Assembly: GCA_951801825.1 (NCBI GenBank)
Contig: CATOOF010000001.1
Location: 380,132-444,131, forward strand
Length of the DNA: 64,000 bases
Reading direction: 5' to 3'
DNA from: an uncultured Alphaproteobacteria bacterium
Lineage (GTDB): Bacteria > Pseudomonadota > Alphaproteobacteria > Rs-D84
Shown: positions 28,223-55,062 of the stretch, in pieces
Numbering within the stretch: the first letter of the stretch is position 1
Layout: each line of letters starts with the position of its first letter
The notes under the pieces: generated by a model
The model's input: only the letters and a program-made list of their open reading frames with translations
The model's database searches: none
What the model was told of the DNA's origin: nothing
Program-made: the position numbers and the translations under genes

Positions 28223-28425
28223 ATCTTTTGTTTCCTTCTTATCCTTCGATTTATATGGTTTGCTTTCGATTACAAGTGAAAAAGCCCCGCGGGTGCGGGG
28301 CAATAAAAAACGGCGATACCTATCGCCATTGTTCATAGGTATATTATACCACAATTTCTAATAAAAATCTATTAAATACCCCACATGCCAAAACAAAAAA
28401 ATCCGCGAAAATTCGCGGAAATCCT

Positions 28426-28500
28426 GGTGCCGGCTGTCGGACTTGAACCAACGACCCTCTGATTACAAATCAGATGCTCTACCAGCTGAGCTAAGCCGGC
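28426..28500 (-). tRNA. tRNA-Thr (anticodon TGT)
   Basis: Reverse complement GCCGGCTTAGCTCAGCTGGTAGAGC...anticodon loop TTTGTAA...GGTTCAAGTCC...CCA. Confidence 0.88.
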
Positions 28501-40086: not shown

Positions 40087-40911
40087 ATGGCAATCACTAT
40101 AAATCCAATTTCTCCGGTTGCATTTTCCATATTTGGACTGGATATCAGATGGTATGCGCTGGCGTATATCGCTGGGTTTATAATTGGCTATTTTCTTTTC
40201 AAATATCTGGCATCCCGCCGCAATAGCGGTGTTTGTATATCCAAAAAGCAAATGGATGACCTGCTTACCTATGTTATATTGGGTGTTATTCTGGGCGGCC
40301 GTCTGGGGTATGTGCTGTTTTATAATCTGCCGTTTTTCCTGGCACATCCGTTGGAAATATTTGCCGTATGGCACGGCGGGATGAGTTTTCATGGCGGCCT
40401 GATTGGTGTAATTGCCGCCACATTTCTGGCCGGGCGGAAAATGAAAATTAATCCGTGGCGCATGTTGGATTTAATGGCGGTTGTCGGGCCTATTGGATTG
40501 TTCTTTGGCCGTATTGCGAATTTTATAAATATGGAGGTTATGGGCCGTCCCACGTCGAACCCCTGGGGGGTTGTGTTTGCTGGTACTGGCGATGTAATCC
40601 CGCGTCACCCAAGCCCCTTGTACGAGGCCGCAACCGAGGGTGCGCTGCTGTTTATTATAATGCTGTGCCTGTATTGTTTTACCGGTCTGCGTCGTCGTCC
40701 GGGGGCGCTGGCGGGAATGTTGGGTATGTTGTATGCAGTATTTAGAATCTTTTGCGAACAGTTTCGCGCCCCCGATGTTCAGATTGGTTTCTTGACCAGC
40801 TGGGGGCTAACCATGGGTCAGTTGCTGTCGGCGGCAATGTTTGCGGCCGGTGCGGTAATTTTTTCTATTTCGCTAAAGCGCAAACAAGTAGGGACGGATT
40901 GTAGTAAATGA
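40087..40911 (+). CDS. lgt: Prolipoprotein diacylglyceryl transferase
   Basis: Lgt signature region ...RHPSPLYEA... and TM topology. Confidence 0.9.
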   Translation: MAITINPISPVAFSIFGLDIRWYALAYIAGFIIGYFLFKYLASRRNSGVCISKKQMDDLLTYVILGVILGGRLGYVLFYNLPFFLAHPLEIFAVWHGGMSFHGGLIGVIAATFLAGRKMKINPWRMLDLMAVVGPIGLFFGRIANFINMEVMGRPTSNPWGVVFAGTGDVIPRHPSPLYEAATEGALLFIIMLCLYCFTGLRRRPGALAGMLGMLYAVFRIFCEQFRAPDVQIGFLTSWGLTMGQLLSAAMFAAGAVIFSISLKRKQVGTDCSK

Positions 40912-40967: not shown

Positions 40968-41057
40968 GGATGGTTGGCAGAGCGGTCGAATGCGGCGGTC
41001 TTGAAAACCGTTGAGGGTGCAAGCCCTCCGGGGGTTCGAATCCCTCACCATCCGCCA
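40968..41057 (+). tRNA. tRNA-Ser (anticodon TGA), long variable arm
   Basis: GGATGGTTGGCAGAGCGGTCGAATGC...CTTGAAAA...long extra arm...GGTTCGAATCCCTCACCATCCGCCA. Followed by a terminator hairpin at 41086-41115. Confidence 0.9.
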
Positions 41058-41184
41058 GGAATCAGTTATATTTTGAATATGTAAACATATCACGCGCAGG
41101 GCCCCGGAAAATTGGGGCGTTTTATTTATAACTCATCCATGGTATATCGTGAATTTTTAGAAAACGGCAAATAAAAAACACTTT

Positions 41185-41470
41185 CTATACATTGGCCTTT
41201 TTCGCCCTGGCAGTAGGTTTCGGGATTATATTTGATGCTTTGGTGCAATGGCAAAGATTTTCACCACACTGCACGGCATCAAATAATTCCTGGGGTATGA
41301 TTGGGGCATGTTCGCCACGGGCGGTGGTGCCGGTAACCTTGCACTCAACATAACCCAGATATATCTTACTGCGTAGCATTCTGTGCAATGCCATTTTCTT
41401 GATTGGATTCCCGCCAATAACGCGACCGCCGTGCGTCGCCCATTTCTTGGCATAAATCCCGATGGTGGGC
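41185..41470 (-). pseudogene. Remnant of a large serine recombinase (recombinase domain only; no resolvase catalytic domain, frame disrupted)
   Basis: Translation ...KKMALHRMLRSKIYLGYVECKVTGTTARGEHAPIIPQELFDAVQ matches the Recombinase-domain block (NPxYxG ... HEPIIsxELFexVQ) of large serine recombinases. Sits immediately next to the tRNA-Ser 3' end. Confidence 0.5.
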
Positions 41471-41653
41471 AGGTGTGGGAGAAAATAGAATGTGCAGAGT
41501 TAGAACCTGAGCCGGAACAATTGGATTTGTTTAAATAACACTTCCTTTCTCATAACGGTAGCTCCCGCTTTATTAGCTGTAACGCTTGTTAGGATTTTCC
41601 GGTGTAATAAATTCTATTGAAGTCCCGTAGTGTTTCTTTAGCAATATAACGCG

Positions 41654-42406
41654 TCAAATATAATGTATCGTGTATATAAGCTGTGTTGGCTGTTTGACGG
41701 ACAGTATTCCTGATAGGAGAGGTTGGCGTGAAACAGACTTCATAATATTTTTTAGTAATTCTTCTTTGCCAAAAAAATTTTTAAGGGGGAATATTTGCTC
41801 ATTATTTTTTATAGCTAAGATATCTAAGTGTATCTCTGTCTCATTATCATCGCATTTTTTTAAGGTCAGTATAGTTGCATTTGTATTCAGAGTTAGGTAA
41901 TAATCAGACTTTGTTCCTAAATCCTTATTGGCAGCACAGCTCATACATACTGCAAGTAAAGCAATGATAATATTTGAATTCAACTGCATTATATTATTAG
42001 AGTCTATGCTGATAATTTGTAATGACGGATCACTAGTGCCCCCTATAATGTTGAAATTGCTAGGAATTGATTTTCCATGATGGATGTGACATCGAAATAT
42101 ATGATACACAATTTCAGCCAAATCTGGCCCAAAGCATCCACCTACAACACGTCCTTTTTCATCCGTTATTTTTATACCTGGATAAAATTTCCAAGCCTCA
42201 CATTCTGGTAATCCCATAAAAGGTTCCATAATCCAGTAATAATTGCGTAGTAAATTTATATAGTCGTATCTTGAAATATAATCTTTGTTATACCAGTTTC
42301 TAGCAGTTCCTTCTATTGCCAATGTTGCAAAGTTAAATGCGGCTGTGAAATCTTGGGTGTTATAGGCATCAAGTGAGCGTTCTATGTTTCGAATTAATTC
42401 GGTCAT
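41654..42406 (-). CDS. Hypothetical protein (250 aa), AT-rich island cargo
   Basis: Clean ORF in a ~33% GC region. No recognisable motif. Confidence 0.45.
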   Translation of the reverse strand: MTELIRNIERSLDAYNTQDFTAAFNFATLAIEGTARNWYNKDYISRYDYINLLRNYYWIMEPFMGLPECEAWKFYPGIKITDEKGRVVGGCFGPDLAEIVYHIFRCHIHHGKSIPSNFNIIGGTSDPSLQIISIDSNNIMQLNSNIIIALLAVCMSCAANKDLGTKSDYYLTLNTNATILTLKKCDDNETEIHLDILAIKNNEQIFPLKNFFGKEELLKNIMKSVSRQPLLSGILSVKQPTQLIYTIHYI

Positions 42407-42529
42407 TTATTTATTCTTTTAGCTATGTATATAGGGATATTTTTGATAGGTTACAAGGTATATTCTTTTACAAGAAATCTACGACAAATGATATCGTAAG
42501 GATGTAATTTGTAAAAAGAACAGTAGGTG

Positions 42530-42955
42530 TTACAAATTTACAATCTCAATATCCGGGAACTGGGTGGCGATATATTCAGCGGCGAGTCTGCGGTGACATT
42601 GTAAAGCGCTCTTCTCGGTGCAGAGTAAGCATATTCGGTCAAGGTCGGGCGGGGCGAGCCCATCGGTCGGATGGCGTGTGGTCAGCAATTCATGGTACAT
42701 ACGCTCATAATCAGGCCAGGTAATGCGGCCGTCTTTGTAGCCGGCAAGGATTTCGGTGCTTGGGGCGAATTCTGTATGGTATTCATATCGGTCGCCCAGT
42801 GCGGCGGCCAAATTTGTGCCGCTATAAAACGGAACAAAACGACTGGTGCGCCACAGCCGAATATCCCAAACGCAACTTGCTTGGGTCGCGTTCAGGATAT
42901 CCATAAAATCGTCGGGCTTTTTGCCACTGAAGCCAATCGTAAAAATCTTTGCCAT
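42530..42955 (-). CDS. DUF488 (YeaO-like) family protein
   Basis: MAKIFTIGFSGKKPDDF...DIRLWRTSR N-terminal block typical of DUF488. Confidence 0.55.
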   Translation of the reverse strand: MAKIFTIGFSGKKPDDFMDILNATQASCVWDIRLWRTSRFVPFYSGTNLAAALGDRYEYHTEFAPSTEILAGYKDGRITWPDYERMYHELLTTRHPTDGLAPPDLDRICLLCTEKSALQCHRRLAAEYIATQFPDIEIVNL

Positions 42956-42956
42956 A

Positions 42957-43259
42957 TCAGTACAAAAATAGCCCGTTTAGCATCAAATAGCAATGATTTT
43001 CCTGCATCAGGAACTTTCGTGCCAATCCTATGCGGCAATGAGCGTACTGACTGTTGGAAATAGCATTGTTCAGACTTTTGATGTCTTTATCTTTTTCAAA
43101 TATATCACGTAAGTACTTGCAACTGACCTTTAATTCATAGGTTTGTTTGGAATAGTCCGTAATACGGGCACGCAATTTACCGTCTTCTGTAAAGAATTCA
43201 ATATTGTGTGCCGGAATCAATATGGCACCTAACGAAGGACATTTGGTTTTCTGTGGCAC
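42957..43259 (-). CDS. Hypothetical protein (100 aa), translationally coupled upstream partner of DUF488
   Basis: Stop codon 1 nt before the DUF488 start. AT-rich. Confidence 0.35.
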   Translation of the reverse strand: MPQKTKCPSLGAILIPAHNIEFFTEDGKLRARITDYSKQTYELKVSCKYLRDIFEKDKDIKSLNNAISNSQYAHCRIGLARKFLMQENHCYLMLNGLFLY

Positions 43260-43418
43260 ATAGGCATTTTCTTTGACGTGGTGATGGAATATGCCTTGTG
43301 TGTCTTTTTCCTCTTATGTTTGTGCAATGAATGCTTACAAACCGAGTCGAGTCAAGATATTAAGTATTGCTTGTAGTTATATAGTTGTTTGCTATGATTA
43401 GACAAATGGGAGAAATTA

Positions 43419-44408
43419 ATGCCAACAACTCGACATACTTTTGTTTGTCCAATATATAATATTGATGTAGATAATGATGTTTTGGGTGTTGATTATAATG
43501 GTTATATAATTATTTCTGCATCTGAATTTCACGAAAATTATGTGTCTCAATTATATTGTGATAATATGGGATTATTGGATGATATAAAATTACCGCAGCT
43601 TGGTTCAATAGTTGACCGGCCCACGGCTCGGTATATTATAATTTCTTATATAGATTTAGAAGATGGCTATAACCAAGATGTTATATCAGCTAATAACAAA
43701 AAGATAGATGAATTCTTTTGTGGCTTTTGCTTCGTAATAATGGCATTGAGATGGTTAGCCCCTGGAAATATACAGGTAAATAATGCTTATGTTTTATCAA
43801 GCAGAAGTGCAAGAAGAAGAGATTTTGGGATTTCTACACCATTGTATGGGCTAAGTAATATGTATACTGAAGGAACCACTCTTTTGTTCCTTAATAATTA
43901 TAGAATAACAGATGTTCTTTTAAATAGAGCGATTGAGCTCGGACAGAAAATAATAGATAATTATAGTGCCATCGAATATCCAGCGGTATATTTTAATCAG
44001 TATTACCAAACATATCATTTGCAAGATAAATTAATAAAGTTAATGACTTTGCTTGAAACTAGTTTAATGGGAGATAGTCCGATTGAAAAGCAATACGCAT
44101 TAATTTGTCGTGGATGTTATTTTTTGAATAAAAATATCGGGTTAACCTTAAAATGTGCATATTCAATCAGAAGTGAATATTTACATTCTGGTGATATTAA
44201 GCAGAAAACAGGTAAAAAAATTCAACAAATTGTGAATAAGCAAAATGAATGGGAAGCTTTATTTGTTTTTATAACGGAGTATCTCGAATTTATTTCTAGA
44301 GAAGTTTTAAATAAGTTATTTTTAGAAATTCTGGCTACAGGACATAAAATAGACCAAATAGATCGCGATTTAGATGAGCAAATTTATGCCAAATTAAGTA
44401 GCTCCTAG
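43419..44408 (+). CDS. Hypothetical protein with a possible HEPN-type Rx4H motif (Abi-like)
   Basis: C-terminal segment CAYSIRSEYLHSG fits the Rx4-6H HEPN signature. AT-rich. Assignment tentative. Confidence 0.35.
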   Translation: MPTTRHTFVCPIYNIDVDNDVLGVDYNGYIIISASEFHENYVSQLYCDNMGLLDDIKLPQLGSIVDRPTARYIIISYIDLEDGYNQDVISANNKKIDEFFCGFCFVIMALRWLAPGNIQVNNAYVLSSRSARRRDFGISTPLYGLSNMYTEGTTLLFLNNYRITDVLLNRAIELGQKIIDNYSAIEYPAVYFNQYYQTYHLQDKLIKLMTLLETSLMGDSPIEKQYALICRGCYFLNKNIGLTLKCAYSIRSEYLHSGDIKQKTGKKIQQIVNKQNEWEALFVFITEYLEFISREVLNKLFLEILATGHKIDQIDRDLDEQIYAKLSSS

Positions 44409-44582
44409 TTTTGGGTATTTAATCAGTTGATTTAAGTAATTCTTTATGCGAAACTGAAATTGAACTTATTGGGAATTGGGTTCGGGATTTGCCCAGAGAC
44501 GGCGGAACATTCGCTTGTTAACACCAACTCCCCGACCGCCATTATCCCATGGCGGTTAAATATTATCTATGGGAAGTAAATA

Positions 44583-45485
44583 ATGTCACATGAAATTCTG
44601 TTGAAAGATATTTTGGATGGGATAAAGGTAGATTCGTCTGCAAATCGTCGGCGCAAGCTGCGTTTCAATACTTCATGGATTGATCAGGATACAAAGATAT
44701 TCAGAGATTTCCGGTCAATGTATATGGATAATGACGAATGTTTTGTGCCATGGACTTTGTCTACTCGGTCGAATAAGCAAAAAAGACTTAGTGACATTGA
44801 CACGGTTTTTCAGTTTATTGAAATAGAACCGCATAAATGGTTGTTTGTAGGCGCATATGAAATAATTGACTTGAATTTGTCTGCGTTTGACAAAGTTATT
44901 GGTAAACCATTTGATTATGCAAATGCAAAAAGATTGGCCGAATTTGATAAGTTATCTGACAGATTAGTGGTGGAACACACTAATACACCAAAGAAATTTT
45001 TTTATACTGATCCTAATATAATTGACAATGTAAAGGTTTATACTATTTTGCCGCGACCGTATCGCGGTTCTGCAGAAGAGTTTCCAGGATATGAAAATGT
45101 ATGTAAAGATTATAAATCATTGTCGCATTGTATAAAAGACTCTGCGTGGCATGATGCCCTATGCAATGTATATGGTGTATATGTTTTGACTGATACAAAA
45201 ACTGGGAAATTATATATCGGGTCTGCAACGGGGGCGGATGGAATATATGGCCGGTGGCAAACTTATCTGAAAAGGGGATATGATGATTCTGATAAAGACT
45301 ATCCGAATAAAAAATTGAAAGAGTTGGTAAAAAAAGAAGGTATTAAATATATCCAGGATAATTTTCAATACAGCATATTAGAAATTTTCCCAAAGACAGA
45401 TATTGGATGCAATAAAGCGTTAGAACGCGAAAGTTATTGGAAAAATGTATTCAAAACGCGTATGTTTGGATATAATGATAACTAG
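44583..45485 (+). CDS. GIY-YIG nuclease domain protein with an uncharacterised ~190-aa N-terminal domain
   Basis: C-terminal GVYVLTDTKTGKLYIGSATGADGIYGRW...ALERESYW...FGYN reproduces the GIY, YIG, Arg, Glu and Asn positions. Confidence 0.65.
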   Translation: MSHEILLKDILDGIKVDSSANRRRKLRFNTSWIDQDTKIFRDFRSMYMDNDECFVPWTLSTRSNKQKRLSDIDTVFQFIEIEPHKWLFVGAYEIIDLNLSAFDKVIGKPFDYANAKRLAEFDKLSDRLVVEHTNTPKKFFYTDPNIIDNVKVYTILPRPYRGSAEEFPGYENVCKDYKSLSHCIKDSAWHDALCNVYGVYVLTDTKTGKLYIGSATGADGIYGRWQTYLKRGYDDSDKDYPNKKLKELVKKEGIKYIQDNFQYSILEIFPKTDIGCNKALERESYWKNVFKTRMFGYNDN

Positions 45486-45569
45486 GAATATCTAATGCTG
45501 TCAAAAGAGAAATGGGCTTTAGAATAGGCAGAATACAAAGACGTTAGTTGTAACTTTGGATATACCATA

Positions 45570-45956
45570 TTGCATAAGACGGGTAATACAGAATACTTGT
45601 CGGGCGCGTTTCGCAGTGCATTTGCAGAATGGACGACATTTAAAGATATAGAAAGCATGGCGTCTTTTATCGCGCTGTTATTATCTAGCCGGGTATTGAT
45701 TGAAGTTGATGTTTTATCAGCAGAGATATTTCCAGAACTGGAGCAATCTAAAATATTACAGTTTGCGCCGGGAATGTTAGATACATCAACCTTTCAATAT
45801 ATGGCTTTTAATGATGCAATGGCTGTGCCGGAAGTTCGTGATATAGAGGCAGGCGTTGGCCCATGTTTATCTATTTTTACCGCTTTGCCAGAATTGCGCG
45901 AAATCCAAGATTTGGATAAGCGAATATTTATATATGTTGATTTTAGACGCGTTTAG
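45570..45956 (+). CDS. Hypothetical protein (128 aa). GC higher than its neighbours.
   Basis: Clean ORF, convergent with the ParB-like gene. Confidence 0.4.
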   Translation: MHKTGNTEYLSGAFRSAFAEWTTFKDIESMASFIALLLSSRVLIEVDVLSAEIFPELEQSKILQFAPGMLDTSTFQYMAFNDAMAVPEVRDIEAGVGPCLSIFTALPELREIQDLDKRIFIYVDFRRV

Positions 45957-45979
45957 GATTGGTTGTGCCGGCCAAGCCG

Positions 45980-46471
45980 TCAGATGTCGCCCCGGTGGCA
46001 CTGCTGGTCTTCGTCAGTCAGCGCGGGAATGGCATCCGCTTTCGGATCACTTGCTCCATCACCGTCCAGAATTAGGTCAATCTCGGCGGTCTCAAAACCG
46101 GAGATTTCCAGATTGAAATCCAGGTCCAGGTTGCTCAATTCACTGAATTCCAGATTCAACAATTCGATACTCCATTTGCCGAGTTCCGTAAGTTTGTTGT
46201 CCGCGATGCGGTACGCGCGTTTTTGTGCATCCGTCAGATGCGACAGAATAATTGCCGGCACTTCGATCATGCCGGCATCCTTGGCCGCCGCCACGCGCCC
46301 ATGCCCGGTGATGATTTCCAGATTCTCGTCCAGCAAGACCGGATTGATAAACCCGAACTCGCGGATGGATTCGCGTATTTTTGCGACTTGGACTTTGGTA
46401 TGCAGCTTCGGGTTGTTTTTGTACGCCCGAATGTCAGTTATTTTTATGTTTTGGATTTGTAAGTTGGTCAT
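45980..46471 (-). CDS. ParB-like nuclease domain protein (ParB/Srx N-terminal domain only)
   Basis: IREFGFINPVLLDENLEIITGHGRVAAAKDAG contains the ParB GxxR box. ATG 46471 has a GGAG SD; ORF-track 46582 is an upstream extension. ~50% GC inside an AT-rich island. Confidence 0.6.
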   Translation of the reverse strand: MTNLQIQNIKITDIRAYKNNPKLHTKVQVAKIRESIREFGFINPVLLDENLEIITGHGRVAAAKDAGMIEVPAIILSHLTDAQKRAYRIADNKLTELGKWSIELLNLEFSELSNLDLDFNLEISGFETAEIDLILDGDGASDPKADAIPALTDEDQQCHRGDI

Positions 46472-46687
46472 TAGACACTCCGTATAAGTTTTGTTAATCA
46501 TCACTATAAATTTTTTATAGGGGGGTATATATATGGAAAAGTGAAAGTTTACTTGAGTGTTCGCGCCACGAAACCTATACACTTTCCCTCTTATAAGGCG
46601 ATCTGAAAGTTTATGTTTTGATATATGGCTAAAAATAATGTGTTATACTTGAAAAAATGGCTGGTGTGATATATATAGAAATATACT

Positions 46688-48265
46688 ATGAGAATTAATA
46701 AGTCGGCGGGTTTAAACGAGTCAGAGCATCGTCTTGTAAAACTAGGCGAGAAGGTTTTTATGGGATTATGGAGTTATCCTAATCCCAAAATAAAAACCTC
46801 ATCAGGAACCCCGGAATTATGTGATTTGTTAGTTGTTTGTGGTAATAATGTACTAGTTTTCTCAGATAAAGATATCAAATTCAATGAGGATAAAGACTTA
46901 TTAGTGGCTTGGCGCAGATGGGAGCGGAAAGCTATATTAAAATCGATAAATCAGTTAAGACATGCCGAAAATATTATAAAAGATCATCCAGAAAAAATAT
47001 TATTGAATGATACAGATCCTTTTCCTTTGTCATTTCCTGCAAAGAGGGATTTAAAAATACGTTTAATATGTGTGGCAAATGGGGTAGCGGAAGCGTGTAA
47101 AAGATATTTTGGTAAAGGCTGTACAGGAAGTTTAAAATTTTCTAACTTAAACGGTTATACTCAGGTGTCAGATAAGGACTTGTCTAAGTTACCTGTTAAG
47201 GAAAGAGAAGAGTATAAAGAGAGTACGATATTCACTATAGCTGATTATGATTCATTAAAAACCTTTGTACATGTTTTTGATGATTATTCTTTCCCGTTTG
47301 TTTTACAGGAATTAGATACATTGACGGATTTCGTTAAATATTTGGAAGAAAAGGAGCGTTTTATAAGATCTGGGGTTGCGGTATGTTATACTGGCGAAGA
47401 GGATTTATTATACAATTATTTAAAAGAGTTTGATGAAGAACGCAATTGTCATACATTTGTAAATCCAAAAGAAACTAATGCAAATGTATTTATGTTTATG
47501 GAAGAGGATTGGAATTCATTTAAACAGTCCCAACAATATATTGCTCGTATAAAAGCTAACCAAAAAAGCTATTTCTGGGATCAGCTTGTTCAACATAATG
47601 CCCAATGTACATTGGCCGGTATTACTAAAATTTTTGCTACTGCGTCAGCAGACTGTGATATTGCTTTTCGGTATATGGCGCTAGAGGATCGATTGTCGCG
47701 CAGAGCATTTTCCGATAGAATGATAGCTGCAATCAGCAATTTCCCCGATAATTATACGCCAGACAATCACTATATGAGTGCATTTTTCTCTTTTGTGAAT
47801 GATGGATTATTGTACATATTTTTACAAATTCCCAAGGAAAACAACAGTTCTCATGGTGATTACTTAAAAGCTAGACGTGATAAAATGCAAATTTACGCCA
47901 ACTGTGCCAAAGCTAGATGTGAAATAGAGGGTAAGTTTGTAGACAAGGTTATATGTATTGCAACTGAGCCGATGAGAATTGTGAAAAATGTTGATATAGA
48001 CATAATGCTAATGGATATTAAAGAATGGAATACAGAACTACAGAACCATTGGGAATCGGCACGTCGAAACTTAAACATATTTAGAAAATCATTTAAAGAT
48101 CTGCAGCATGCAAAAGAAAAAGAATGGCCTGAGTCTCCGATTTTTGTGCAAAAACGAACTAAAAAGATAGGTCAAAATGATAAATGTCCATGTGGTAGTG
48201 GATTAAAATACAAGAAGTGCTGCGGAAGTGTTTTGAAACCCAAAAAACAAATACCTTACATATAA
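46688..48265 (+). CDS. NERD-like nuclease-related domain protein with a C-terminal SEC-C metal-binding motif
   Basis: N-terminus GEKVFMGLWS...ELCDLLVVCGNNVLVFSDKDIKF matches the NERD pattern (E...ExDhvvv...vfvxExK). The terminal CPCGSGLKYKKCCG is a SEC-C motif. Confidence 0.5.
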   Translation: MRINKSAGLNESEHRLVKLGEKVFMGLWSYPNPKIKTSSGTPELCDLLVVCGNNVLVFSDKDIKFNEDKDLLVAWRRWERKAILKSINQLRHAENIIKDHPEKILLNDTDPFPLSFPAKRDLKIRLICVANGVAEACKRYFGKGCTGSLKFSNLNGYTQVSDKDLSKLPVKEREEYKESTIFTIADYDSLKTFVHVFDDYSFPFVLQELDTLTDFVKYLEEKERFIRSGVAVCYTGEEDLLYNYLKEFDEERNCHTFVNPKETNANVFMFMEEDWNSFKQSQQYIARIKANQKSYFWDQLVQHNAQCTLAGITKIFATASADCDIAFRYMALEDRLSRRAFSDRMIAAISNFPDNYTPDNHYMSAFFSFVNDGLLYIFLQIPKENNSSHGDYLKARRDKMQIYANCAKARCEIEGKFVDKVICIATEPMRIVKNVDIDIMLMDIKEWNTELQNHWESARRNLNIFRKSFKDLQHAKEKEWPESPIFVQKRTKKIGQNDKCPCGSGLKYKKCCGSVLKPKKQIPYI

Positions 48266-48277
48266 ATAGGATGTAAG

Positions 48278-48454
48278 ATGCCGGTTTTTAATAGAAATGG
48301 AGAAGTGATAGGTGTAATTACAGAAACGCCAGATCCAGAAGGTGATTATGATAAATTTGGTTACGGGGTAGCAATTCCTATGGAATATATAGAACAGCTA
48401 GAAAATGAATATGATAGAAAAATAACTTTTATGGATGATATTAATTGTGTGTAA
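48278..48454 (+). pseudogene. Trypsin-fold protease C-terminal fragment, in frame with and separated by a single TAA from the preceding gene
   Basis: IGCKMPVFNRNGEVIGVIT...GYGVAIP parallels the GNSGGPLVNLNGEVIGINT...GIGFAIP block of HtrA/S1 proteases with Ser replaced by Cys. There is no upstream His/Asp region, so it is likely a remnant. Confidence 0.35.
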
Positions 48455-48487
48455 TTAAAATTATCTTTATAACTAATCGTTATTATA

Positions 48488-49873
48488 TTAATAAAATCCA
48501 AATTTTAATTTCCTATTCTCTATTTCTGATTGTAGCATATCAAAATTGAAATCAGAACGATTTATATTTTTATAAAATTTTAGTAAATGATAATGAAAAG
48601 AATTGTGAAATGTCTTTTTTATCATACTATCTAACAAAGTAATATAGTAATCTTCTCTGTTAAGCTCTTTCATTATTTTATATACATTAGATAGTCTAAA
48701 ATCCGGAGAATCTGCAAGAATAGTTTCATCTAGTATAGATGTAATAGTTGGTTCTAATAGTTCATTTTCAAGAAAGTTTATTCCTTTTTTCACTAATAGT
48801 GTAATTATTCGTTTTATCACTCTATCAGATCTAAATGCATATTTTTTCATTTTGTAGTCAAAGAACTCTCTAACAGCAGAATTAAAATTTTCTTTTGTGG
48901 TATCGTCGGATAAGCAACTAATAATATCAAAAGCTTGGTAAATTCTATATTCTGATGCTTTCATAATATGAACTTTACCAACATTTATATTAAGTCCAAT
49001 CTTATATAAAATTTTGGATGCTTCAAAGATATGTTTTTCTGCGGTATACTTATCGTTGCTAAATATTGCCATATCATCAGCAAAACGTATATAAGAAGAA
49101 CCGGAAGCTTGTGTTAAGTTAAATATGCGTTTGTCAAATTCTCTCAGATAAAAATTTGCAAGCTGTCTGGAACAATCGCCGACTTCGTCTTGCGGTATGC
49201 CGGTATGTCGACTAAAATATCCGTCAAAAGGTTTGTTCCAGTAATGTAAAAAGTACATTAGTAAATCAAGTTCATTGCTAAGAGTATTGGGTATTTTATG
49301 GCGCAGGCGTTTTTCTAATAAATCAACTTTTATATTGTCATAGAAGTTAGCTATATCAAATATTGCTACATAAAAATCCTCTCCGAATTTTGATTGATAA
49401 TCTAAAAATACGGAATATGCTTTTCTGGTATATTCATTCCATTCGTTCAACCATGCTCGAATATCTATTGCTGCAGCTGGAAAGTATTGGATTGTATCCA
49501 ACATAAGAAGGTCTTCAAAATTTTCTATTTCTTTAATTGGATTGCTAAATCTCCAGCCGCCAAATGTTCCTTGTGTCCTATCTTTTATGTCGCATATGTA
49601 ATCTTGGAGTTTGTTTAAACAGTAAAAATATGCACAATAGTCTGTAAATTCAAACGTTGGTACTATTCTGGCGACATTACCACCTTTGTTAAATATTATA
49701 TAGTCTCTTGGAATTGTCGGTTGATATGTATTGTTTGAGATGTCGTTATACAAATTAGATAAACCGGTTTGTATATCAATAAGAGGAAACTCTATTAGGG
49801 ATTGTTTTTTTACATGTTTTGCAAAAGGTAACATTGAAGCGATAAACTCAGACTTAGTTTCATGAATTTGCAT
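48488..49873 (-). CDS. Reverse transcriptase of the Abi/retron/DRT-like (non-intron, non-LTR) type, 461 aa
   Basis: RT motifs 1-2 (IFNKGGNVARIVP), A (VAIFDIANFYDNI), B' (GIPQDEVGDCSRQLANFYL), C (YIRFADDMAIFS), D (KIGLNINVGKVHI). ~140-aa alpha-helical C-terminal extension. No maturase or endonuclease domains. Confidence 0.75.
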   Translation of the reverse strand: MQIHETKSEFIASMLPFAKHVKKQSLIEFPLIDIQTGLSNLYNDISNNTYQPTIPRDYIIFNKGGNVARIVPTFEFTDYCAYFYCLNKLQDYICDIKDRTQGTFGGWRFSNPIKEIENFEDLLMLDTIQYFPAAAIDIRAWLNEWNEYTRKAYSVFLDYQSKFGEDFYVAIFDIANFYDNIKVDLLEKRLRHKIPNTLSNELDLLMYFLHYWNKPFDGYFSRHTGIPQDEVGDCSRQLANFYLREFDKRIFNLTQASGSSYIRFADDMAIFSNDKYTAEKHIFEASKILYKIGLNINVGKVHIMKASEYRIYQAFDIISCLSDDTTKENFNSAVREFFDYKMKKYAFRSDRVIKRIITLLVKKGINFLENELLEPTITSILDETILADSPDFRLSNVYKIMKELNREDYYITLLDSMIKKTFHNSFHYHLLKFYKNINRSDFNFDMLQSEIENRKLKFGFY

Positions 49874-50199
49874 AAATTTCCTCTTTTCTGGAATTATAAT
49901 AGGAAAGTGTTTGGTGGTCCAGAATATAGTTATACCTTGAGAGGTATATCAAAAACTTATGAAGCTGATATGTGTTGCCATAATTATGCCGGGTGTTGCG
50001 CCAATAATCATCAATAGTACCTAAATTTTCCCAGATAATACAAAATATTGCTAATTTGTGAGCCGAGATTAGCGATAAGTTTTTATGTTCGTATTCGAAA
50101 AAGTGAATAAAATCGCGTAGTTTTTCGGTTTGTATTCAAAATAATTTGATGGTTTTGCAATGATTTTTAGGTTGTCGCCAAATAATGGCAATCTATACC

Positions 50200-50390
50200 T
50201 TGGCGGGGGTGGGGCGGGGATGTTCCCTGATGTGGGCGGGTGAAATCCCTGTTCCTAATATAAAAATTCCCTGTTATTTTTGTGGGAAATTTTGTGAAAG
50301 TCCCGGAAATCGGGTGCAACGGGTGAAAACGGGGGCGCCGAGATGCCGAAAGTTCCCTGTTAATCCCTGTATTTTGTTGTATGGCGTTTG
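50200..50390 (+). repeat. Locally GC-rich array of five TCCCTGT(T) direct repeats (starts 50224, 50246, 50268, 50354, 50364; spacings 22, 22, 86, 10 nt) interleaved with three GGGTGAAA motifs
   Basis: Read directly from the sequence. The overlapping ORFs 50185..50439 (+) and 50167..50532 (-) are judged non-coding. Confidence 0.6.
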
Positions 50391-50450
50391 CCGTAGAATA
50401 TTGGTGCGCCGTCAGGAATATATTATTGAAATTGCTTAATCTTTTTACAA

Positions 50451-50485
50451 AACATCCGATGTCTGTCGGATGTTCTTTTATAGGT
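50451..50485. terminator. Bidirectional intrinsic terminator (AACATCCGA/TCGGATGTT 9-bp stem, 6-nt loop, T/A runs either side)
   Basis: Perfect inverted repeat followed by CTTTTATA on the plus strand and preceded by TTTTTACAAA. Confidence 0.65.
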
Positions 50486-50557
50486 TTTAAGGGCCAAATT
50501 CGACTTTTGTGGGGGTAAAAATAAACAGGCAACAGTTGTTATAAAAATGAAAACATT

Positions 50558-51067
50558 GTGTTTACGCCCAACACCCCAGCTGAAAAAGCAACATTTGAAA
50601 AGCCGGTTAATACAATGCCTGGTTACTATGCGGTATTTGATGACAAGCAATTTACATTGTATGTGGATGATAAACCGGTAATATCATGGGATGCTGTATC
50701 TGGTCGTTCCGGTTACCAAAGCCCAGAATGTCAAGACCAAAAATCCACAGGGCCAATCCCAGAAGGGACGTATGTTGCAAGACAGGAAAAACTACAGTTT
50801 ATGTCTGCTACAGATTGGCTTATTGGCTGGACGACTAAAGTTACTGATAGGGGTGTTTGGCCCGGGTCTTCAATGTCTTGGGGAAGCTCGCGTGTCTGGT
50901 TAGAACCATCAAAAGAAACAAATACGTTTGGTCGAGGTGGTTTCAGTATTCATGGTGGCGAGGAGCCCGGTTCTGCTGGTTGCATTGATCTAACAAGTGA
51001 AATGCCAGGGTTTGCAGATTGGTTCAAAAAGAATGGAAAAGATTTAATTATTAAAGTAGAGTATTAA
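50558..51067 (+). CDS. DUF2778/Tlde1-like L,D-transpeptidase-fold protein (candidate peptidoglycan-targeting toxin)
   Basis: GRGGFSIHGGEEPGSAGCIDL has the His...Ser-x-Gly-Cys catalytic arrangement of YkuD/Tlde1 domains. Start uncertain (GTG 50558 or ATG 50615). Confidence 0.6.
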   Translation: MFTPNTPAEKATFEKPVNTMPGYYAVFDDKQFTLYVDDKPVISWDAVSGRSGYQSPECQDQKSTGPIPEGTYVARQEKLQFMSATDWLIGWTTKVTDRGVWPGSSMSWGSSRVWLEPSKETNTFGRGGFSIHGGEEPGSAGCIDLTSEMPGFADWFKKNGKDLIIKVEY

Positions 51068-51082
51068 AAACAAAGGCATAAA

Positions 51083-51409
51083 ATGAAAAAAATATTAAAC
51101 ATAACAAGTTATGTCGCGACAATATGTTTGTTTTGTGCCCTGTATATTTTTTTATTTGATTTGGTTTGTATCGGCAAAATTTCAAAATTTAATCATATTT
51201 GGGCAAATGCTTGTCAGTTTGATATTGAAGGCGCATATCTAACCTGTATGACAAATTATGATGTTTCGTGCATTGTGTTGTTGTTGCTCATATTATCTTT
51301 TATGTTATTGCGGCTAATAAGAGTATATAACAAACGTGTCCTGCTCGTTCCGATTTGTGGTTTTTTATTGTTTGTGTTGTCTGTTATAACATGTTGGGGG
51401 CTTGTCTAA
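51083..51409 (+). CDS. Small multi-TM membrane protein, candidate cognate immunity protein
   Basis: Three hydrophobic helices, 15 nt downstream of the Tlde1-like gene. Confidence 0.45.
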   Translation: MKKILNITSYVATICLFCALYIFLFDLVCIGKISKFNHIWANACQFDIEGAYLTCMTNYDVSCIVLLLLILSFMLLRLIRVYNKRVLLVPICGFLLFVLSVITCWGLV

Positions 51410-51515
51410 AACGTTCCTTCTTTGCTCGTTAGATATGGTACGGTTAACTGTTTCTGGATTCGTATATGCCAGGTCTAGGTGGCGGTAAAACTGGCGTGGT
51501 AGTGATTGACGAATG

Positions 51516-52502
51516 TTATGAGTTCTTTATCGCATATTCGGCATATTTTGGACATTCAAAAAAATACTTGGCAAATTCAGCGTCAATCTCACTAAGCCGT
51601 CGTATTGTACCGTCGCTGTCGATAAAAGGTGGATCAACACGCCGCATCTTTTGCGACAGGATAATACCATCTTGGTCGTCTATGGTTGTGCGCCATGCGT
51701 CCGGTGCTTTATACATTGGTGAAAAATCAACCCCGGCCAAATGCATTTTGCGTATAACCTGCATATCGTTTAGCTCAAGGAATTCTTCGCGTGTTAAAAT
51801 TTTCCGCTCTATGGCATTGCGACAAATCCGGGCCAGCATTTCTTCGTAAAACGTAGCGCCATAGCTTGAATAAATCTCTTCGTCGGTCTGATTAAACACG
51901 CGTGCGAACATTTTTGCTGATTTTGCATCCTGTAATACAAATCCATCTGGTGTTGCGACGATTGCCCGGCTTAGTGCTACTTCGTCACAGTCCAACAGCT
52001 TGCCGTGATGGTGCATGTGTGGAATTGCACGCAGACAATAATCAAGTCTGTCCGCGCACAGGTCCGGCAAATCACGTTCTTTTAATATAAATTTTGAGTC
52101 GTCTAATATTTCATCAAGACAAAAGCCGGCACGGGTAATAATTTCCGCCAGCTCAGAGTTTTTTACAAATTTATCGTGAATGTCATCCTGGTATTCCTGT
52201 GTTCTGGATGAGGTTTCGCCGCCGAACAAGCGGTCCGATAAATGCGAGAACGCCGTATGTGACACGTCGTGTATCAGGCCTGCAATTTGTTCCGCCATAG
52301 ATGCGCCATGAATTCGCAACAACATAAACACGCCAATTGAATGATGATATCGGGATACGGGAATGGAGTAAAAAGGCCGACATGGTACCCATGGCCCCAT
52401 GTTTATTCCCTGCAGGCGCTGAAACGTTGGCGCGGCGATAATTTCTTGAAAAACCGGCTCTTCTACATTCAGTACGCCGTAAATTCTATCGCAACAAATC
52501 AT
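51516..52502 (-). CDS. HD-domain metal-dependent phosphohydrolase
   Basis: H...HD...D motif set (YHHSIGV, HDVSHTAFSH, DRLDY). Confidence 0.7.
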   Translation of the reverse strand: MICCDRIYGVLNVEEPVFQEIIAAPTFQRLQGINMGPWVPCRPFYSIPVSRYHHSIGVFMLLRIHGASMAEQIAGLIHDVSHTAFSHLSDRLFGGETSSRTQEYQDDIHDKFVKNSELAEIITRAGFCLDEILDDSKFILKERDLPDLCADRLDYCLRAIPHMHHHGKLLDCDEVALSRAIVATPDGFVLQDAKSAKMFARVFNQTDEEIYSSYGATFYEEMLARICRNAIERKILTREEFLELNDMQVIRKMHLAGVDFSPMYKAPDAWRTTIDDQDGIILSQKMRRVDPPFIDSDGTIRRLSEIDAEFAKYFFECPKYAEYAIKNS

Positions 52503-53700: not shown

Positions 53701-55062
53701 ATGCCAGCAAAAACAATCAATGATATTGTCGCATTATGCAAGCGGCGCGGTTTTATATTCACGGGTTCCGAAATATACGGCGGTCTTGGCGGGGCCTATG
53801 ATTACGGTCCGTATGGGGTCGAGTTGATGCGCAATATACGCGATGCCTGGTGGAATGCGATGATATACTCGCGCAATGATGTCGAAGGATTGGATGCGGC
53901 ACAAATCAGCAATCGTCTGATGTGGAAATATTCCGGGCACGAGGGCGGATTTTCTGATCCCTTGGTTGAATGTAAAAAGTGTGGTGCACGCATGCGCCAG
54001 GATAAAATGGCTGACCCCACAAAATGCGACAACTGTGGCAGTGCTGATATCACGGAACCGCGCGCATATCAGCTGATGATGGGGCTGTCCATCGGTGCGA
54101 TGGCCGACGGGGCTGTAAATGCGTATCTGCGTCCGGAAACGGCGACAACGACATATGTTAATTTTAAAAATGTTTTGGATGCCCGCCCGCATAAGTTGCC
54201 GTTTGGTATCGCCCAGATTGGTAAAGCGTTTCGTAACGAAATATCGCCGCGTGGTTTTGTTTTCCGCATGCGTGAATTCGAACAGGCCGAGATGCAGTAC
54301 TTCGTTCGTCCTGATACGGACGAGAAATATTTTGAAATGTGGAAGGCCGCACGTATGGCGTGGTGGACGGATGCCCTGGGAATCCCTGCGGAAAAGTTGC
54401 GTTTTACACCGCACGAAAAATTGGCACACTATGCCAAGGCCGCATGTGACATCGAATATGAATTCCCCGATGGCTTTGATGAGGTAGAGGGTGTTCACAA
54501 CCGCCAAGACTTTGATTTAGGCAGTCACACCAAGGCACAGTCGGAATTTAAAATAAACGCCAACGTGATGGAGAACAAGGACAGCACGGTAAAACTGTCG
54601 TACAGCGACCCCCAGACGGGCGAGAACTTTATCCCGTATGTAATTGAAACGGCGATGGGTGTTAACCGCGCAATGCTGGCGGTAATGCACAACGCATATA
54701 CCGAAGAAGAGCTACCGGACGGTAAATCGCGACTGGTGTTGAAATTGCGTCCGAAATTGGCCCCAGTTAAGGCGGCGGTTATTCCGCTGGCGCGTAATGT
54801 GCCGGAATTGTTGGATATTGCCACAAATATTGAAAACGATTTGCGGCGCTTGGCCATTGGCCGCATAGAGTTGGAAAATTCCGGAAATATTGGTAAAAAT
54901 TATCGTCGTCATGATGAAATCGGTACGCCGGTCTGCATCACGGTTGACCACCAGACATTAGAAGATTCTACGGTGACACTGCGTCTGCGTGACACCATGG
55001 AACAGCGTCGCATCAATATCGCGGACGTTCCGGCCGCCGTTCTGGAAATAATAAACGGATAA
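53701..55062 (+). CDS. glyQS: Glycyl-tRNA synthetase, dimeric alpha2 type
   Basis: GFIFTGSEIYGGLGGAYDYGPYGVELMRNI and class II motifs. Terminator at 55066-55098. Confidence 0.9.
   Translation: MPAKTINDIVALCKRRGFIFTGSEIYGGLGGAYDYGPYGVELMRNIRDAWWNAMIYSRNDVEGLDAAQISNRLMWKYSGHEGGFSDPLVECKKCGARMRQDKMADPTKCDNCGSADITEPRAYQLMMGLSIGAMADGAVNAYLRPETATTTYVNFKNVLDARPHKLPFGIAQIGKAFRNEISPRGFVFRMREFEQAEMQYFVRPDTDEKYFEMWKAARMAWWTDALGIPAEKLRFTPHEKLAHYAKAACDIEYEFPDGFDEVEGVHNRQDFDLGSHTKAQSEFKINANVMENKDSTVKLSYSDPQTGENFIPYVIETAMGVNRAMLAVMHNAYTEEELPDGKSRLVLKLRPKLAPVKAAVIPLARNVPELLDIATNIENDLRRLAIGRIELENSGNIGKNYRRHDEIGTPVCITVDHQTLEDSTVTLRLRDTMEQRRINIADVPAAVLEIING

Follow-up and report, generated by a model that had tools for sequence, protein, structure and literature searches.

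The DNA considered here is a 64,000-nucleotide (nt) stretch of an uncultured Alphaproteobacteria bacterium (contig CATOOF010000001.1, positions 380,132 to 444,131), referred to below as the window. An AT-rich genomic island of 10.4 kb lies directly 3' of a tRNA-Ser(TGA) gene in this stretch. The island is very probably a decayed, tRNA-Ser-targeted hotspot of phage-related integrative elements, now reduced to a defence island of independent single-gene modules. An earlier reading of the sequence alone, here called the original prediction, had proposed a tRNA-targeted integrative element that has lost its mobility and carries defence-type cargo. That proposal is upheld by relics of the element backbone, by mapped borders and by three recognizable cargo genes: UzuA, a reverse transcriptase (RT) of group UG13b and a PDC-M45C-like gene. 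The prediction recognized no described multi-gene system among the adjacent genes. None is recognizable because the cargo consists of independent single-gene modules; no neighbouring gene travels with the RT in 80 genomes. Features and coordinates are collected in table 1.

The compositional drop behind the tRNA gene is real and far beyond chance. The guanine–cytosine (GC) content of the island (41075-51522) is 0.362, against 0.470 in the remaining window, and all 66 other segments of 10.4 kb fall within 0.449-0.490. The tetranucleotide profile of the island lies at an L1 distance of 0.414, compared with a maximum of 0.278 elsewhere in the window. Overall GC in the window is 0.44-0.52, and sliding values of 0.25-0.37 extend from about 41.5 to 51.4 kb, interrupted by three bumps. 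The bumps are not noise, since they coincide with the recombinase fragment, the DUF488 gene, the ParB relic and the terminal repeat region. The predicted mosaic composition is borne out: cargo genes have a GC content of 0.30-0.35 and backbone relics 0.48-0.54, with individual values of 0.51 for DUF488, 0.54 for the ParB relic and 0.50 for the terminal repeat region. The position of the AT-rich stretch behind tRNA-Ser(TGA) is confirmed by ARAGORN, by Rfam and by both composition profiles; the tRNA is the sole Rfam match between 38 and 56 kb. The island limits were set by comparison with a sister species. Homology to the sister spans lgt and the tRNA, ends at 41074 (17 nt beyond the tRNA) and restarts at 51523. 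The extent first proposed (41058-52502) therefore describes a real island but runs about 1 kb too far to the right. It takes in the HD-domain gene, which has a normal GC content (0.45), is 91% identical in protein sequence to its sister homologue and belongs to the core, with homology from 51523 in all sister loci.

Sister-species loci were found through variants in the 90%-identity protein clusters of the HD gene and the Rv1289-like gene, and their core DNA is 82-85% identical to that of the window. Variants in these two clusters occur on hundreds of contigs, the cargo proteins on about 17. The flanks of the sister loci are collinear, with lgt and tRNA-Ser on one side and the HD gene and glyQS on the other, and the content between them differs by strain. 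In one strain (L088) the island is short and comprises Uzume and an HNH gene. Another (L089) has a MuF-Tlde1 toxin, DUF488 and a type I restriction–modification (R-M) system, and a third (L091) Hachiman; loci L087, L092 and L095 contain a recombinase/terminase element of about 22.7 kb. The comparison with related genomes that the original prediction had called for thus finds the flanks kept and different genes, not the same ones, between them. This pattern marks the tRNA-Ser locus as a strain-variable hotspot and the HD gene as core. The exact RT protein of the window occurs on at least 22 contigs from metagenomes or metagenome-assembled genomes, all with the same island at >99.9% identity; these contigs are one strain.

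The right border of the element is located within the 684-bp gap between the RT and Tlde1 genes. This gap has two parts (50177-50413 and 50414-50538). The first is GC-rich and contains five TCCCTG repeats (50224, 50246, 50268, 50354 and 50364; 5 of the 20 occurrences in the window fall inside 146 bp), followed by a near-invariant block. In the sister species, the non-coding region that separates a 366-residue gene from the toxin gene is 83% identical to it. An intact element from another genome (L101) ends in this region too, with 91% identity across its final 55 nt, and locus L105 has a weaker match. Each time the region ends in ...CCG(C/T)CAG and is followed by unrelated flank containing a terminator hairpin. 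Its place is always at the element end, whichever gene adjoins it (Fic, the 366-residue gene or PARIS), and the terminal-block pattern has no match in IMG/VR viral contigs. The stretch is recognizable as the conserved right terminus of the element because it recurs at element ends with a different flank each time. The second part of the gap, segment X, is 85% identical to the 131 nt directly 3' of tRNA-Ser in two sister loci (L095 and L096). Cores of 11 nt lie at both junctions, and the left one is the exact place of the blastn breakpoints between window and sister arrangements. The comparison thus resolves the structure as tRNA, core, element, core and native tRNA downstream region, with the right border at about 50413. 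The original prediction had left this border undefined. It had also reported no direct repeat of the tRNA 3' end; a long one is indeed lacking (none within 3 mismatches over 28 nt, and general repeat finding returns chance-like pairs only), but the short core was missed. Its repeat-bearing, GC-rich non-coding stretch is real, and corresponds to the element terminus plus the displaced tRNA terminator instead of an RNA partner of the RT. In the sister species (L095 10966-11150), tRNA-Ser is followed by the native terminator segment, a 35-nt diverged pseudo-tRNA 3' fragment and then the element, unlike the window and L088, where the tRNA is joined directly to the element. Elsewhere in the window, about 100 nt beside tRNA-Thr (28279-28376; tRNA 28425-28500) are 77% identical, in inverted orientation, to the terminus–toxin leader of sister loci (L087 and others).

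Of the backbone, relics alone remain. The predicted decayed serine recombinase beside the tRNA is confirmed by a match of open reading frame (ORF) 41185-41394(-) to Pfam Recombinase (PF07508, E 1.2e-5) and by 94% identity to part of a sister protein. The Resolvase catalytic domain is absent from the relic by Pfam and tblastn, and only part of the Recombinase domain remains. Intact copies have 343 residues in the sister species, at the same place beside the tRNA, and 529 residues in L101. In the window the recombinase fragment is fused to the end of a HATPase_c_4 gene. The two fused points lie about 14 kb apart in the sister, so that one deletion took out the element backbone. Another, smaller one accounts for the loss of the recombinase C-terminus and of most of the 178-residue ORF next to it. 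What had been described as a ParB-like nuclease does contain a ParB domain, but is a truncated, phage-type ParB-methyltransferase (residues 1-147 of 397). The corresponding ParB_N ORF (45980-46582, minus strand) matches positions 8-152 of 436 in the PADLOC MTase_II profile as well as ParB-like PHROG families. The full-length gene is found in L087 and L101; its methyltransferase domain is deleted in the window. A further relic next to the HD gene resembles the L101 recombinase gene at its 3' end (88% over 49 nt by blastn), and on this similarity is the trace of another, older element.

The element family is best seen in intact copies. The 12.5-kb element of L101 (1116-13520) encodes a 529-residue large serine recombinase, DUF2924, two small genes, TerL, DUF5681, the ParB-methyltransferase, a SEC-C protein 79% identical to that of the window, two unannotated genes and Fic. 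It occupies another chromosomal site, with no tRNA there. The 22.7-kb sister element begins with the serine recombinase, DUF2924, an 809-residue ATPase-like protein, a helix–turn–helix gene, type III R-M and TerL. It continues with DUF5681, full ParB-methyltransferase, HATPase_c_4, the Rv1289-like gene, DUF488, SoFic, the 366-residue gene, the repeat region and the toxin. In other copies, the slot between the ParB-methyltransferase and the terminus holds fused PARIS (AriAB, 4e-143), PDC-S46 (2.5e-102), SoFic (1.2e-46), Hachiman, type I R-M or Uzume. The 809-residue protein (L095 14557-16986) is similar to the C-terminal part of the PADLOC Ppl model (1.2e-14) and adjoins type III R-M in the first variable slot, so the sister element has two cargo slots. 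The elements of L101 and of sister loci L095 plus L092 contain terminase genes and none for capsid or tail; such compact, terminase-bearing elements may be phage satellites. Phage relatives of TerL are distant, at most 40% identical. One element copy (L120 4083-7062; ParB relic, fused PARIS and terminus) adjoins ORFs that resemble cas2, cas1 and the cas9 C-terminus, judged by their translations.

Two blocks of the window align contiguously with these relatives. Positions 41465-42955 match the sister HATPase|Rv1289|DUF488 block at 86%, and 45957-48282 match the ParB-methyltransferase|SEC-C junction of L101 (2.3 kb, 76%). In a single element the ParB relic would be expected on the other side of Rv1289, and two tandem elements are thus the most economical reading. 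The anatomy, the deletions and the variability between relatives are read directly from these alignments; the order of events is a reconstruction, proposed as follows. (i) Elements of this family share one layout: large serine recombinase, DUF2924, variable slot, TerL, DUF5681, ParB-methyltransferase, defence-cargo slot and repeat-bearing terminus. (ii) They would insert at the 3' end of tRNA-Ser. (iii) Two such elements would have come to lie in tandem, to be stripped later by deletions. (iv) One deletion would have joined recombinase codon 203 to the last 23 codons of HATPase_c_4, at the cost of about 14 kb of backbone. (v) Another would have begun where the first cargo ends and extended as far as codon 147 of the ParB-methyltransferase in the second element. 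(vi) The immobile remainder would then comprise cargo A (Rv1289-like, DUF488, small ORF, HEPN protein and Uzume), cargo B (SEC-C/PD-(D/E)xK protein, 58-residue ORF and UG13b RT), the right terminus and the displaced tRNA terminator, with an orphan Tlde1 module and its immunity gene outside the element.

Several points weigh against this account. The two-element scenario is an argument from parsimony, and a single element with internal rearrangement is an alternative. The direct repeat is short (11 nt, 10/11), and its local alignment score is reached by 14 of 500 shuffles; the border is therefore drawn mainly from the sister-species comparison and not from the repeat alone. The sister arrangement of tRNA, segment X-like sequence, pseudo-tRNA fragment and element is only partly explained. 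Large serine recombinases normally need no long repeat arrays; the TCCCTG array could provide accessory binding sites or an outward-facing promoter, or it could be a pac site or a set of iterons. With terminase genes and no capsid or tail genes, satellites and decayed prophages are both possible identities for the intact elements. The activities of the genes are predictions from sequence and structural models, and the defence role of UG13b is a bioinformatic prediction only.

Table 1. Features of the island and its flanks, with positions in the window.
Feature	Positions	Strand	Evidence and remarks
lgt	40087-40911		left flank
tRNA-Ser(TGA)	40968-41057	+	ARAGORN; Rfam tRNA 55.8 bits; integration target, left anchor
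Left 11-nt core CCGCCAGGAAT	41052-41062	+	tRNA 3' end plus 5 nt
Relic of adjoining 178-residue ORF	41229-41270	-	tblastn; last 14 residues
Serine-recombinase relic	41266-41475	-	tblastn; residues 203-272 of sister 343-residue Resolvase+Recombinase protein, 94% identity
HATPase_c_4 relic	41467-41535	+	last 23 residues, 100% identical to sister protein; fused to recombinase fragment
Rv1289-like protein, 250 residues	41654-42406	-	Pfam PF27329 (precomputed annotation)
DUF488 protein, 141 residues	42530-42955	-	Pfam 2.2e-16; PADLOC PDC-M45C 7e-30, PDC-M45B 3e-13
Small ORF, 87-100 residues	42957-43259	-	ends 1 nt before DUF488 start codon
Two-domain protein, 329 residues	43419-44408	+	beta-rich N-terminal domain, C-terminal HEPN domain
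UzuA, single gene of Uzume system	44583-45485	+	PADLOC 1.5e-48, profile positions 4-278 of 278
ParB-N6/N4 methyltransferase relic, phage-type	45965-46405	-	tblastn, 88% identity to residues 1-147 of 397
SEC-C/PD-(D/E)xK protein, 525 residues	46688-48265	+	N-terminal PD-(D/E)xK-like fold, C-terminal SEC-C zinc motif
58-residue ORF	48278-48454	+	this lineage only
Stand-alone reverse transcriptase, UG13b	48488-49873	-	PADLOC RT_UG13b 6e-112; Pfam RVT_1
Element right-terminal region	50177-50413	+	GC-rich; five TCCCTG repeats, then near-invariant block ending ...CCGTCAG
Right core CCGtCAGGAAT	50409-50419	+	10/11 match to left core
Segment X, native sequence downstream of tRNA-Ser	50414-50538	+	intrinsic terminator 50451-50474; displaced 9.4 kb by insertion
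Orphan Tlde1 (YkuD-like L,D-transpeptidase) module, 169 residues	50558-51067	+	Pfam Tlde1_dom 4.8e-10, YkuD 1.1e-6
Membrane protein, candidate immunity, 108 residues	51083-51409	+	33-35% identical to 112-residue gene after full-length sister toxins
Trace of serine-recombinase gene 3' end	51422-51508	-	tblastn; sister 178-residue ORF residues 134-162, 45% identity, E 1e-4
HD-domain gene	51516-52502	-	core; right flank of hotspot, outside island
glyQS	53701-55062		right flank

Each cargo gene is proposed to act as an autonomous anti-phage module, with Uzume and the SEC-C protein as putative nucleases, one or more HEPN proteins as putative infection-triggered RNases, and the RT as an Abi-like (Class 1-like) polymerase with neither a partner gene nor a flanking non-coding RNA. 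The family assignments behind these proposals are firm, and every biochemical activity is a prediction from them. The gene families named in the original prediction were recovered by hidden Markov model (HMM) searches; the 329-residue HEPN protein itself has no HMM match. The first cargo gene, the Rv1289-like protein, is 90% identical to its sister homologue (tblastn) and provides an anchor common to both species. An F-R-C-x-I-H-H-G motif, which is of the Rx4H (HEPN) type, is invariant in its alignment, and searches of PADLOC, PHROG and PDB return no match. DUF488 has intact homologues in sister strains and no PDB sequence match. A complete PDC-M45 system was rejected: DUF488 alone matches among components A, B and C, and the adjoining ORFs have no PADLOC match. 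No literature on PDC-M45, or on DUF488 in defence, was found. The small ORF next to DUF488 is present in this strain only, being absent upstream of DUF488 in L087, L089 and L111, and belongs to no family detected by Pfam, PADLOC or PHROG searches.

The 329-residue protein belongs to a rare family (48 representatives) with R251 and H256 as invariant residues; none of the members matches a Pfam family. The structural model (pLDDT 93.8) places the Rx4-6H motif in a four-helix HEPN fold, in agreement with the HEPN-like protein originally described, and suggests a candidate abortive-infection RNase. One homologue comes after a Bro-N gene. The next gene had been read as a GIY-YIG nuclease with a novel N-terminal domain. 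The C-terminal GIY-YIG domain is confirmed (Pfam 8e-7, residues 197-298); the novelty is not, as the protein is a full-length match to the described UzuA. A copy with 85% identity in sister strain L088 is flanked by other genes, and from this changed context UzuA appears to act as a single gene.

The SEC-C protein opens the second cargo. Pfam finds its C-terminal SEC-C motif only, and the whole length matches phrog_18195. Its 284 homologues have about 490-525 residues and are labelled 'SEC-C domain-containing' or 'YecA family'. In the AlphaFold2 model (pLDDT 87), the conserved residues E13, E43, D46 and D60 map to helix 11-23 and to strands 47-51 and 54-62. The protein has no PADLOC model and no tblastn match in GenBank phages. 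The family is present in 13 of 5426 complete Escherichia coli genomes. One copy belongs to a P4-like satellite; on contig L097 it adjoins the integrase, and in the complete genome of E. coli 504838 (L099 9001-10464) it lies just upstream of ogr/delta-like and psu genes. A copy in E. coli 210205630 (L100 7968-9431) belongs to a lambdoid prophage, beside a restriction endonuclease and an HEPN gene. In Klebsiella aerogenes (L129) the gene directly follows a P4-type integrase, with HipBA and an McrA-like HNH gene nearby. On other gut contigs (L124-L127) it stands beside a variable slot that adjoins a large serine recombinase. Together with the modelled fold, the protein is a candidate stand-alone defence nuclease. 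No literature naming this family as a defence system was found; only Rugutis, of different architecture, came to light.

The RT had been called Abi/DRT-like (Abi, abortive infection; DRT, defence-associated reverse transcriptase), an assignment that holds and can be narrowed to UG13b. It scores 372.8 bits against the UG13b profile (residues 16-452 on positions 13-425 of 430), whereas the next best group, UG21, reaches 103 bits (3e-30). The catalytic motifs are intact: the window protein has D173 and the A-D-D triplet (D266, D267), and an alignment of 39 sequences shows them to be invariant. A homology search yields 127 relatives, stand-alone proteins of 430-470 residues in bacterial phyla, candidate phyla radiation lineages and some archaea; a scan of GTDB species representatives gives no copy above 54% identity. 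Gene neighbourhoods were counted at 80 genome loci (L007-L086). About 19 of the 80 RT genes of UG13b type are in or beside type I R-M operons, often -10 to +7 nt from hsdS/M or hsdR. A protein with an Rx4H (HEPN) motif directly follows the RT at eight loci, and eight loci are near large serine recombinases. The RT family profile reaches solved structures of retron, group II intron, Drt2 and UG15 RTs; the UG15 match covers positions 250-435, C-terminal to the RT core, at an E value of 1e-3 only. Secondary PADLOC matches to UG21, UG19, UG9, UG13a and UG23 suggest that the RT belongs to Class 1, the RTs with C-terminal alpha-repeats (Mestre et al. 2022, PMC9226505). In the same work a defence role of UG13b is predicted from individual loci, by bioinformatics only. 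By extension from its Class 1 relatives, the window RT is inferred to be a partner-less Abi-like polymerase.

Three other explanations of the locus were weighed. One holds that the RT, the repeat-bearing non-coding stretch upstream of it and perhaps the convergent SEC-C gene form a single multi-component DRT system, with the non-coding region encoding the RNA that serves the RT as template or scaffold, a role known from DRT2 and DRT9. The stretch is indeed upstream of the RT and on its strand. A 57%-identical RT in locus L105 (8001-9389) likewise has three ACAGGGA repeats (7759-7888) 113-242 nt upstream, in the same relative orientation; that RT adjoins a KAP NTPase, a NOV_C gene and two Dcm methyltransferases, and the locus is probably another stripped element copy with the RT as terminal cargo. 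Yet no RT accompanies the repeat region in the sister species, in L101 or at any of the 17 metagenome loci that contain an exact 21-mer of the terminal block, and the region is always at the element end. The closest genome RTs (L007 and L008) have no repeat region. Many relatives leave gaps of only 0-10 nt to both neighbours, and hence no room for a flanking RNA. These three observations (RT-less loci, element-end position and homologues without flanking space) led to the rejection of an RT-associated non-coding RNA in the stretch. Promoter-like sites for the RT (49952-49893) lie within 80 nt of its start codon in a promoter scan, and the stretch has no Rfam match. None of the genes beside the window RT recurs near the RT in the 80 genomes; the SEC-C protein, the 58-residue ORF and Tlde1 were rejected as partners on this ground, and no SEC-C homologue is near any of the loci. 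A multi-component DRT system is accordingly very improbable. That the region is a still-functional mobile element, whether prophage, satellite or integrative and conjugative element, is hardly more credible. It would fit the tRNA target, the core repeat at the junctions, the conserved terminus and the intact relatives elsewhere, and both junctions persist, so that a related recombinase could mobilize it in trans. The recombinase, however, is down to 70 residues without its catalytic domain, and TerL, DUF5681, DUF2924 and the methyltransferase domain are all missing from the island. The locus is moreover always occupied, at >99.9% identity, in six independent metagenome contigs.

The last alternative sees the locus as serving chiefly inter-bacterial competition through a polymorphic toxin and its immunity gene, with the other genes incidental. 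The predicted Tlde1-like toxin and membrane immunity candidate are both present, and the H...SxGC catalytic motif of the Tlde1 domain is intact. Sister strains encode full-length MuF-type toxins of 379-385 residues, with a common N-terminus of 210 residues and a swappable C-terminal domain (Tlde1 or phage lysozyme); their MuF motif scores 25-27 bits, below the Pfam threshold of 29.6. Immunity-like genes and orphan fragments accompany them beside the HD gene. At L109, L114, L117 and L118, arrays downstream of a full-length toxin contain C-terminal fragments of lysozyme (one), Tlde1 (one) and DUF488 (two) as well as a 75-residue gene, which is typical polymorphic-toxin cassette turnover. Against a mainly competitive role stand the state and position of the window copy. 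It comprises only the C-terminal 167 residues of a MuF-type toxin, corresponding to residues 213-379 of the sister protein (81% and 68% identity to toxins of 379 and 381 residues, tblastn), and the MuF motif is absent. The N-terminal 212 codons are simply missing; a decayed N-terminal domain in the non-coding stretch was sought and rejected, as no protein similarity is present there. The gene opens with a GTG close behind the tRNA terminator, and its strand shows no promoter-like site. The module lies outside the element border and makes up less than 1 kb of 10.4 kb. Chief use in competition is therefore a poor prospect, about on a par with retained mobility. In the defence-island reading, the pair is a putative orphan toxin/immunity module whose immunity function is the one most likely to matter: the 108-residue protein, with hydrophobic segments visible in its sequence, would guard against Tlde1 toxins from relatives.

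The locus itself is one more defence island of a common kind, with a few candidate gene families. Its value is that of a well-delimited example and a source of candidates. It demonstrates that defence cargo can be kept while the mobile-element backbone is deleted, with breakpoints mapped to the codon, and it puts the UG13b group in a clean single-gene context. It is possible, if somewhat doubtful, that two of its components are undescribed: a stand-alone anti-phage nuclease of about 500 residues with PD-(D/E)xK and SEC-C parts, and a satellite-like vehicle family with a P4-like slot. A second defence gene not yet described may be represented by the rare, unannotated HEPN family. The SEC-C/PD-(D/E)xK protein is a widespread candidate that also occurs in the tractable E. 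coli P4 hotspot. If the reading is true, its family spans the defence slots of P4 satellites and lambdoid prophages in E. coli and of mobile elements in gut Alphaproteobacteria. The small terminase-bearing elements of these uncultured bacteria, with their defined cargo slot, are a further candidate.

Individual genes compare with known systems to different degrees. The window copy of Uzume matches end to end by HMM, with a C-terminal GIY-YIG domain in a stand-alone gene with variable neighbours, and no sequence-level difference was detected. The RT is, like the UG/Abi RTs of group UG13b (PMC9226505), full-length, stand-alone, about 460 residues long and set among defence genes. AbiK, Abi-P2 and DRT4 (UG15) may be functional analogues, their protein-primed, untemplated synthesis being extrapolated to UG13b. 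Rugutis of Lactococcus (PMC11381338), which acts against phage as one gene, is comparable to the candidate SEC-C protein: it has a SEC-C zinc motif, and the rest of its fold is unassigned. It has 359 residues and an N-terminal SEC-C motif, whereas the window protein has its SEC-C motif at the C-terminus and a PD-(D/E)xK-like domain at the N-terminus; the two are set apart by description. The Tlde1 pair recalls the MuF toxins of temperate phages, for which a polymorphic toxin locus signature was described (Jamet et al. 2017, PMC5576092). Sister strains have the MuF-motif N-terminus, swappable toxin domains, downstream immunity-like genes and orphan fragments; the window copy equals the toxin module without the MuF part, and no phage head genes are near.

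The island as a whole is closest to two known kinds. Rousset 2022 (PMC9122126) defines the psu-int defence hotspot of P4-like satellites, likewise a fixed slot between framework genes whose anti-phage system changes from copy to copy, and the SEC-C/PD-(D/E)xK family occupies both the E. coli hotspot and the slot described here. The framework differs: it consists of a large serine recombinase, DUF2924, TerL, DUF5681, ParB-methyltransferase and a repeat terminus, without psu, sid, delta or alpha. The host is an uncultured gut Alphaproteobacterium, and in the window the backbone is deleted and cargo alone is left. With tRNA-linked islands the locus shares a tRNA 3' target, an adjoining integrase remnant, deviant composition, variable content and clustered defence genes. 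It differs from them in its serine recombinase, in place of the usual tyrosine type, in a border repeat limited to an 11-nt core, and in its appearance as a fusion of two cargo regions.

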